A stretch of 64,000 nt of DNA from Hormiphora californensis (lineage: Eukaryota > Animalia > Ctenophora). Position 1 is the first letter of the stretch, and each line of letters opens with the position of its first letter. The position numbers and the translations under genes are program-made. Location of the stretch: NCBI GenBank assembly GCA_020137815.1, contig CM035351.1, positions 8,866,001 through 8,930,000 on the forward strand, in the 5' to 3' direction. The notes under the pieces were generated by a model that was not told the origin of the DNA, did no database searches, and saw only the letters and a list, made by a program, of their open reading frames with translations. This document shows positions 57 to 11,622 of the stretch, one piece after another.

Positions 57-3000
57 ATGACATCACTTCATATAGCATTCCTGACGTTCTTCATTATAGT
101 GACAGCTGCAAGTACCGAAGAATACATCCTAGGTAAGATCGACTTTTTGAATAGAACTATAATTTTGATTTCGAAAACCTGGTACAATGAAGCATATATT
201 CAAATAGTAATTAGGATCTCAAAAATTACTGTAATTATTTAATCCCCAATATCTCTTTACAGAGTGTACAATTAAGACTACCAATTCTCTAAAAAGAGTG
301 ATACGATACTCAGAGTAAGTCAGCTTTAATTTAATGCTAAGAATTAGATAAATCACGATTTATGCGAACCACAATTTATGCGAACTACGATTTACCGTGC
401 ATAAACCTTTACCCGAGGAGTCCTGTAAATCGAGGTTTTATTGTGTGCCCTACTTTACCAATTCAATCACTGCAGTCACGTGGATGAGTGTGGAGTTGAC
501 TATACCTGCTCACAGAACTGTTATCAGAGTGTTATCGACGAAGTCTTCCACGGGTAATTATAACTCTGCAGTCTGCAGTCTGCATTGTAACAAGATTGAA
601 ATCTAATTCAAAGCTGCAAGATCAAGAAACAAAATTAACACATTGAGCATGTTAAAAAAAATAATCTAAAGCTCCTTGCAGATCAAGTGGTGCTACAGTA
701 TCCGATAGGTTCGATATCTCCACGTGTGAATGCAAGCTGAACACCAATGGAACTTTATACCCTGTAAATGACACTTCAGAGTGCGATGAAATCAGGGATT
801 TTACTCAAAGCTGCTTTCTGAATGATTGTAACGCCTGGGATTTGTGGGACAAGGGAGCCGTGTGTGATGTGACTGCAGACTGCACATGGGAGTGCTGGGA
901 AAAGATAAAGGAAATAAAGGCCTCCTACAATAATACTCTGTGCCACTGTCACCATGAATATGCTGCATCCAGTAATGAGGACAATGAACTTTGCGAAAGT
1001 AAGATATAACAACTTAGTGTCACATGAAAACAAGTTTATTTTGTGTTCCCCCCACGGCTCACCTTCATAATAGTATAAATTCTACACCGGCATTGAAAAA
1101 AGGCAATTTTTAATAATGAAAACCATTTAACAGGTGCTTTAAATAAGATTGGAAACTGTACCAACAACCCGCCAATGGAGCCAACAGAAAAAGAGCCAAC
1201 TGAAGAAGGTCCAACTACAGAAGAGCCTGTGAAAGACATGTCAATAACAGTAGTACTACTAGTAGTAGTCGGGATCACTCTGTGTTGTATACTTGTACTG
1301 GTGATTCTAAAGAGATGGTGCCTACATGCTGGGAGGGAAGGTAAGCTGAGATTAAAACTCAAGTACAATATTCAGTGAATATCAAGATCATTTAATATTA
1401 CACAATGACCATGATAAAGAGCTAAACGCGTGATTCTCAAGCTGTATTTGAAGCATCTCAACAAAGCTGTGTTTTCAGTAAAGAGGTCAGGAGATTTGAG
1501 GAAGATGATTCCGTTTATTCAGTGGCACTCCATTAGACTTCTTGGTCACACTGAAGAATACCTGAAATCTGGAAAGGACTCGACGAGACTTGAAAAGCGG
1601 GAGGTGAGTACTGAGTAATATTCTTTTACTCCTGAGACTTCACGCCAGTTTTCCGGTGAGACTAACTATTTGGTCTTCAACTTCCCCACATGCATCAAAA
1701 ATATTGATTCATTTCCCTAAAACTACAATCTTTTTATTGGGTAGAACTATTTTGGGTGGGAGACATTTATAAATCAATTGCTTCAAATAAGTTACACTCA
1801 CGCACCCAGGGGACCCACACAGCATTAGGGCTGCAACTAAGGGTCCCTTACTAACAAAACTTGAACTCAACGAAAATTTAGTTTCGCCTTGACGCAATAT
1901 AAAACCATTAGAGAAGGGTTTTCGTGCTGGTTGCTGCGGTATACCACGACCGCAAAACAGGGTCATGCGGCTTTACACTCGGAAGGGAGAAGGTGAAGGG
2001 AGAGGAGAAAGAGAAGGGTGGGGGTGACTGAAAAACAAGTACGAGCAAGATCAAAGAATATCATCAGGGACGATTGTTCCTGAGATATGCTTCTTCACTA
2101 GCTTATTAAAGAGGGGTAGTGAATTGCACTGCCTGATCGAAAAGGGTAACTTATTCCACAAACTGACTGTTCTATGGAAATAGCCAGCCCTGATCGCTCT
2201 GTGGGTAGCGGGCCCATTCCTAAGTTCAGGGATAATAGCTAGTGTGGTGATATCACGACCCTCACATATATCAACATTCTGACGCGTGGTTCTCAACGTA
2301 GTAGGATCGATGGGTTGAATGAAGTCAGGAATGGGGATATTAGTAATACCGAAAACCAGCTTGTAAAACAATCTGAGATCATAATACTGAAACAGATACT
2401 TGAAAGGTAACATATTAAGGGTACGCTAACCAAAATTTTTTTTCGAGTGCAGGGAAATCTCTCACCGTAGGGTTGTAGGCCATACCAAGGAGACATCAAA
2501 TATGCAATTTTAGCCCTTAAGTCGAATTCATATTTTTGCTACAGCTGTTTAAAAAATGTCCTGAAAATACGTTTTTGGCATCTCAAAAATTTTTTTTCAA
2601 AGATAGGAGCATGAAAATTTGGGGATTTGAAGAGGACATGAAGGTGAATAACCACAAAAAATTTTTTTGCAATCCGAGCTGATTTCCGGTCCTGAGATGG
2701 ATTTCTTTTTTTCCACTTTAACGCCCTATTTGGCAAAGTTCCGAAAACATGTGAAAGCTGTAAATTGGTGAAAAGTTGCGTCTAACGATTATCTAAGTGG
2801 CCATAAATTTTGGGCGTGTCCTTATTTGAGATAAGCTGTACGGAGTTTTTTTTGTGAAAGCCGTCATTTCAGAAATAAATAAATTCCCTGTATCTCAAAA
2901 ACGGCTGATCGTAGAGACCTGAGACTATGCTTAAACGATTCAGAAGGTCCGATTTTGGGGGGGTCTTCTGAGAGACATTTTGCTCCTACTTCAACCGTTT

Positions 3001-10900: not shown

Positions 10901-11622
10901 AGCCATTGCTTATCTACACGGTCCGCACGGTCAACAACAGGTATTTTCATATTTTGTGGGGGTCTGAGATGGGGAATTATTTATATTGCATTTTACAATA
11001 ATCTAAATCACCCCCCCCCCCCCAGGAATCAATAATTCACTCTGATATCAAGCCTGATAACATCTTTGTGAAGCGGAAACATCGCCATCTTGTTTTTGTG
11101 TTGGGTGATTTTGGCCATTCAAAGTGTTGTACAGCCTGGAGTGCCCAACATGGAATGTGGAAACCCAGGGGTTACACTGATACTCACGCACCCCCTGAGT
11201 GGGCTTTTCTGGGACCCATGGAGTCACAGGGAGAGTTGAATGAGGAGCAGGAAAGCGCTTATCAGATGCGTGGTCGCCATCCCACCGCCATAGACATCTA
11301 CCAAATGGGGTTGGTGATGTGGCAGGCTTTCAGTAGGACCTCACCCTGGCAGGACCGGGTAGTAAATCCTGCAGGGGGTAGGGACATGCTTAGAGAACTA
11401 TTCAGGAATGATTTCCTGGCGCGACCTGAGTTCCCTATCTTGGACAAGGGGGACAATAGACAAGTAGTGTACGAGAAATTGAAGGGGATCGTTAGAAGAT
11501 GTTGGCACCACAGGATTGAAAGTAGACCCAGTTCAGAGACACTTCATAATGACCTCAGAAATGTGTTTGAAAACCGAATTGAAGTGGTTTTATCCAATTT
11601 AGTTAACAGAGATACTGTTTGA
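7951..11622 (+). CDS. Receptor Ser/Thr kinase 2 (paralog of kinase 1) with an extra N-terminal TNFR/Eph-like Cys motif; 11 exons
   Basis: Exons 7951-7985, 8101-8132, 8367-8546, 8764-8832, 8915-9340, 9543-9737, 10019-10143, 10203-10360, 10502-10660, 10796-10940, 11026-11622. Putative signal MEYNINISWAGLCLIVTVQQYMVFG; TM PPLLLIPLLLLVIWWCI; HSDIKPDN, GDFG, APPEW. Kinase intron positions and phases match gene 1. The first two exons are less certain. Confidence 0.85.

Follow-up and report, generated by a model that had tools for sequence, protein, structure and literature searches.

A ctenophore receptor family that probably joins GAS1/GFRα-type repeats to a TGF-β-receptor-like kinase in a single chain

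We analyzed a 64,000-nucleotide stretch of the Hormiphora californensis genome (contig CM035351.1, positions 8,866,001 to 8,930,000; hereafter the window), in which two genes, gene 1 (57-7140) and gene 2 (8027-11622), lie in tandem on the forward strand and encode single-pass receptor kinases. Both belong to a family with the same one-chain architecture and the same kinase residues, and every member with a named organism is from a ctenophore. On balance, we lean towards the view that they are tandem paralogues within a ctenophore receptor family, with a probably active kinase that likely descends from the TGF-β receptor family, and with repeats for which we predict a pared-down GAS1/GFRα fold of eight cysteines that would bind an extracellular protein ligand. 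A previous sequence-only reading had proposed a GFRα-type module and a TGF-β-receptor-like kinase in one chain, an interpretation that our results support in part.

The exons of both genes were joined by genomic coordinates, the models being genomic sequence with some exon borders checked against relatives. In one RNA run, 0 contigs matched 8760-11700, a result that carries no information on expression. Gene 1 consists of exons at 57-132, 263-314, 476-553, 682-998, 1134-1340, 1479-1603, 5142-5299, 5446-5604, 6230-6371, and 6508-7140, and gene 2 of exons at 8027-8132, 8367-8546, 8764-8832, 8939-9340, 9543-9737, 10019-10143, 10203-10360, 10502-10660, 10796-10940, and 11026-11622. All 18 introns are GT-AG and both spliced frames are open (648 and 711 aa), bearing out the proposed order of signal peptide, two cysteine repeats, stalk, transmembrane helix, and kinase. 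Two exons, the first of gene 2 and the second of gene 1, are inferred; the one in gene 1 brings in that gene's sixteenth cysteine, in a context resembling that of relatives. A gene 2 start at ATG 8301 was set aside, as it requires a 23-base intron. The splice junctions after exons 4, 5, 6, and 7 map inside contiguous sequence of relatives, and the last exon of gene 2 is 91% identical to Pleurobrachia bachei protein P0009. From exon 4 onward, the two genes agree in intron phase (last six introns: 1,1,0,2,2,0) and in nearly every exon length (exons 6-9: 125/125, 158/158, 159/159, and 142/145 bases in gene 1/gene 2), and their proteins are 53% identical over 584 residues (blastp). Read from the N-terminus, each protein has a hydrophobic stretch, a cysteine-rich part, a P/T-rich stalk, a single transmembrane helix, and a kinase. 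Hydropathy predicts a signal peptide in gene 1 exon 1 (57-132) and transmembrane helices at about residues 210-233 of gene 1 (1238-1309), after a P/T/E-rich stalk, and 293-311 of gene 2 (9662-9718), after a T/P-rich stalk. The kinases are encoded by exons 6-10 (1479-7140 and 10019-11622).

The ectodomain and the kinase are part of one chain, as the single frames of relatives link them. L001, an intron-free contig of 1884 bases, has one long frame running from repeat 2 through the membrane helix to the kinase, and P0004 (712 aa, contig of 2231 bases), P0002 (706 aa, 2625 bases), P0006 (711 aa, 3082 bases), and P0007 (677 aa) all comprise signal peptide, cysteine unit, two repeats, membrane helix, and kinase. 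These contigs are probably transcripts, because they are so short that they leave little or no room for introns. A six-sequence profile searched against 1.84 billion representatives recovered 12 family members among the best 150 matches, the other 138 being kinases, many with several kinase domains; a word-based search using exon 4 of gene 2 recovered none of 82 candidates. The organism is named for three of the 14 family clusters looked up, and all three are ctenophores: P. bachei (P0009), Mnemiopsis leidyi (P0040, annotated as "hypothetical protein"), and Bolinopsis microptera (P0003, "uncharacterized"). On these three clusters, the family is likely ctenophore-specific. In the annotated M. 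leidyi member (P0040/P0176), a 16-residue unit repeated five or six times stands in for the second repeat and the sequence ends at the kinase start; either the copy is damaged or the gene model is wrong. The most divergent member, P0013, has a record without a signal peptide, no N-terminal unit, and shorter kinase inserts, and is the best candidate to root the family.

The two 8-cysteine repeats span residues 27-183 in gene 1 (exons 2-5, 263-1160) and residues 120-261 in gene 2 (exons 4-5, 8939-9570). The cysteine and kinase motifs quoted in the sequence-only reading are all present where it placed them, and the cysteine motif occurs twice per gene as described; each repeat has eight cysteines, the first of which had been omitted. 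The motif occurred twice in none of 20,000 shuffles of either ectodomain, and once in 54 and 59 of them, a test that excludes composition only, as the pattern was derived from these same proteins. Each repeat has eight cysteines in five of seven proteins, the other two totalling 14 and 17. Repeats 1 and 2 match each other with a probability of 68% (E 4.7e-5), with one mis-split row (P0006) included. Gene 2 has, in front of the repeats, an additional 6-cysteine unit (exons 2-3, 8367-8832) that had been missed; it is lacking in gene 1 and present in four of the five other full-length relatives examined. This unit has no Pfam match and a predicted local distance difference test score (pLDDT) below 50 in a relative's model; a TNFR- or Eph-like appearance by eye was not assigned. 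Of the 16 repeats read, 12 (5/7 first and 7/9 second repeats, with P0006 repeat 1 mis-split and L001 lacking repeat 1) have a basic residue four positions beyond the penultimate cysteine, on the helix where the arginine motif of GFRα sits. In section 8 of PMC4349606, Arg224 of GFRα1 is a key GDNF contact.

Is the fold of these repeats that of GAS1/GFRα? The two repeats of a relative, with the gene 1 exon in the alignment, were modelled confidently as all-helical with no sheet. Searching this model against 48,161 solved chains placed GFRα1 domain 3 first and GFRAL second (Z 3.8 and 3.7). The GFRα match spans the whole domain, with sequence identities (20, 18, and 14%) above those of all other chains listed, and repeat 2 superposed best on domain 3 of GFRα1 and of GFRAL. 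GAS1 was not among the best 50 chains, which is no evidence either way. Two cysteines are lost jointly in P0004, fitting the 5-10 bond of GFRα connectivity. Several results weigh against this fold assignment. The Z scores are low, and Pfam, Foldseek, and sequence profiles returned no GFRα. The Pfam check proposed for the GDNF/GAS1 domain came out negative, PF02351 appearing in 0/9 ectodomains at E up to 10, where HMMER filters discard most weak matches. An atlas search gave nothing by features, on two occasions, and no named family by structure. The claimed resemblance to the GDNF/GAS1 domain is favored by the helical model and, at low Z, by the structure ranking, and is not recovered by Pfam, Foldseek, or profiles. 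The three-finger ectodomain is missing (no Activin_recp or ecTbetaR2 match in Pfam, no sheet in the model). A viral fold library gave no match below E 0.001.

Like GAS1 and GFRα1-4/GFRAL, the proteins are predicted to have a signal peptide followed by a tandem pair of small disulfide domains, all-helical, and an S/T/P-rich stalk. They differ in having eight cysteines per repeat rather than 10 per domain (PMC4349606, PMC3527400), although PMC4349606 describes a Caenorhabditis elegans GAS1 homologue that likewise lacks two cysteines. Furthermore, GAS1/GFRα proteins have a glycosylphosphatidylinositol anchor and no catalytic domain, whereas ours have a transmembrane helix, a kinase, and, in most members, the extra N-terminal cysteine unit. 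GAS1 and GFRα bind GDNF-family ligands, RET, or Hedgehog.

The last exon of each gene matches Pkinase (Pfam E 3e-11). Of the nine members compared, 9/9 retain DFG, the β3 Lys, the αC Glu, and the catalytic Asp and Asn (gene 1 reads HSD at the catalytic loop), and all nine are non-RD kinases. The GxGxxG glycine loop is found in 0/8 members, gene 1 included, and a predicted helical insert takes its place. There is no TGF_beta_GS match in Pfam, and a pattern resembling the glycine-serine (GS) box occurs in 0/8 juxtamembrane parts, the two pattern matches falling elsewhere. A second helical insert, of 27-41 residues (15 in the most divergent member), is located at the β4-β5 position, giving a β4-β5 spacing of 50-64 residues in eight members and 38 in one, compared with 23 in P0105.

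When a family profile of 13 sequences was searched, and in two structure searches, receptor kinases of the TGF-β family ranked first or close to it, though with narrow leads; the profile aligned to them over nearly 300 positions. As for the resemblance to activin type II receptors suggested earlier, these searches point to the TGF-β receptor family and favor neither type I nor type II. In the kinase tree (nine family domains set against the 40 of 125 outgroup domains that scored best, 85 being left out and 13 of the 138 non-family matches having no full domain), the family formed one clade (100/100) with a long stem (0.91) and several deep subfamilies. Two observations count against a TGF-β receptor origin or do not bear on it: the tree, uninformative about the sister group, gave none with support, with one TGF-β-receptor-like row sampled, and RIPK3 was the top single-sequence PDB match of the gene 1 last exon. 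The proteins resemble TGF-β family receptors (ACVR2A/B, BMPR2, TGFBR2; TGFBR1, ACVR1, BMPR1B; ctenophore TgfRIa-c and TgfRII) in being single-pass with a signal peptide and in the kinase ranking, and type II receptors also lack a GS box. They differ in lacking the three-finger ectodomain and the glycine loop, in being non-RD, in the longer β4-β5 spacing, and in a kinase identity of only about 16-22%; type I receptors have at that spacing a short L45 loop for Smad choice, where our proteins have the helical insert.

Between the two paralogues, ectodomain cores are 30% and kinases 73% identical. A gene 1 exon 10 tract (6723-7016) matches gene 2 11235-11528 at 293/294 bases (99.7%), and exon 7, 84.7% identical overall, has a near-identical 5' part in a second tract (5130-5260/10191-10320); outside these tracts, DNA identity is 50-67%. 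Gene conversion confined to the kinase exons is likely. An assembly artefact was considered for the shared 294 bases; P. bachei P0009 has gene-2 flanks and the gene-1 form just upstream of the tract, a mixture consistent with conversion whose borders shift.

A homogenised kinase carrying ectodomains that change fast would also be expected of immune or self/non-self sensors. Plant pattern receptors combine fast-changing ectodomains with non-RD kinases, and by this functional analogy plant receptor-like kinases and IRAK/RIPK resemble our proteins in non-RD kinase, divergent ectodomains, and tandem copies. The divergence contrast, the 294-base tract, the tandem duplication, and the non-RD state throughout would all suit such a role, but the window holds just two copies, distant members keep the same cysteine frame and order of domains, and the tree shows deep subfamilies rather than a shallow burst. 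Plant receptor kinases, moreover, have another ectodomain and do not group with the family in the tree. We consider a sensor role rather unlikely.

The resemblances on which we rely could instead be superficial, a small helical disulfide domain of independent origin having been joined to a fast-evolving, unplaced tyrosine-kinase-like kinase. The negative GFRα searches, the low Z, and the long stem without a supported sister would agree with this, as would the neighborhood of the family, where one of the 138 non-family matches was confirmed TGF-β-receptor-like and 0/31 scanned had Activin_recp or TGF_beta_GS. Yet two families named beforehand topped unbiased structure searches of separate domains, a whole GFRα domain was matched at the list's highest identities, and the profile alignment to TGF-β receptors is long. 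We consider this reading quite improbable. Kinase-weak decoys or scaffolds modulating canonical TGF-β signaling, in the manner of BAMBI, would account for the helical insert in place of the glycine loop and for the low Pfam kinase scores, which begin at the hinge region. As the catalytic Lys, Glu, Asp, Asn, and DFG persist in 9/9 members over a deep clade, we regard this as very unlikely.

Under the favored explanation of a ligand-binding receptor with a TGF-β-receptor-derived kinase, GAS1-like domains would have replaced the three-finger ectodomain of a TGF-β-type receptor. The kinase would work without a GS switch, as in a type II receptor, and, being non-RD, would not need activation-loop phosphorylation. 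Ligand may cluster receptors via the GFRα-type repeats, and a clustered receptor may then phosphorylate its neighbor, be it a chain of the same kind or a type I receptor of the canonical sort. Smads would not be direct substrates, because the helical insert, possibly a new docking surface, occupies the β4-β5 position, which in type I receptors serves for choosing among Smads. With no GS box and the L45 position rebuilt, a role as type I receptor is unlikely. According to PMC6953019, type II receptors, held to be constitutively active, act on the type I GS box by phosphorylating it, and the L45 loop is how type I receptors select Smads. A bolder and unlikely proposal is that ctenophores have a second TGF-β-superfamily receptor class, in which the GFRα-type module recognizes a cystine-knot ligand, perhaps from among the five TGF-β ligands of Mnemiopsis that are unclassified, and the signal passes through the receptor's own TGF-β-receptor-derived kinase with no RET.

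Gene 1 also contains repeats and insertions. Its exon 9 splice acceptor sits in 17 tandem 30-base copies (5738-6240, +), each with that acceptor, so the true start of exon 9 is ambiguous but always in frame; splicing to a copy further upstream would lengthen the protein by 10 residues per copy, immediately ahead of the kinase hinge. Intron 6 contains a nested insertion: a long interspersed nuclear element (LINE)-type reverse transcriptase remnant (2054-5124, -) is split by a 1.4-kb fold-back element (2415-3812) with 608-base arms that are 98% complementary. The remnant's 3760-5124 part matches RVT_1 (E 1e-32); the 2054-2425 continuation was read from sequence and has no Pfam match itself. Elsewhere in the window, GAR1 (12480-13400, -), glucosidase I (GH63; 24092-26534, -), and an AlkB-like 2-oxoglutarate-Fe(II) oxygenase fragment (48801-49802, +) are ordinary neighbors. 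A single-exon 585-aa frame (26689-28446, -) unusually combines SAP (Pfam E 1e-10), DnaJ (E 1e-9), and cysteine-rich segments. Long frames at 29872-30984 (-) and 31140-32432 (+) have no Pfam match and look by eye like retroelement open reading frame 1 and reverse-transcriptase-associated remnants. At 51660-62609 (+), a long gene or tandem set alternates zinc-finger-like exons (C-x2-C...H) with RGG- and GYY-rich low-complexity exons; the single exon scanned has no Pfam match.

The architecture was claimed to be undescribed, and our full-text literature search, with subscription journals and bioRxiv supplements outside its scope, agrees: neither a receptor kinase with a GFRα/GAS1 domain nor this family turned up in any paper. 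The TGF-β receptors that surveys list for ctenophores are all canonical (PMC3169577, PMC11184263, PMC13391361). PMC11184263 pruned kinases outside its focal clade. PMC7535936 does not mention GDNF or GAS1. In PMC3527400 and PMC9695228, GFRα-like receptors are placed at the protostome-deuterostome ancestor, with GAS1 also in cnidarians.

Taken together, the domain architecture is new, and its two components, a GFRα-type ectodomain and a TGF-β-receptor-type kinase, are of known kinds; each assignment is probable, and in other animals the two are known from separate proteins. If borne out, it would give animals a second receptor Ser/Thr kinase architecture and extend the GAS1/GFRα fold to the earliest- or second-earliest-branching animal lineage. 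It would also offer concrete candidate receptors for orphan ctenophore ligands, with Mnemiopsis as a system. Should the second receptor class exist, the pairing of the GFRα fold with TGF-β-like ligands would be older than vertebrate GDNF signaling by a span as deep as the entire animal tree; alternatively, it would have arisen twice.
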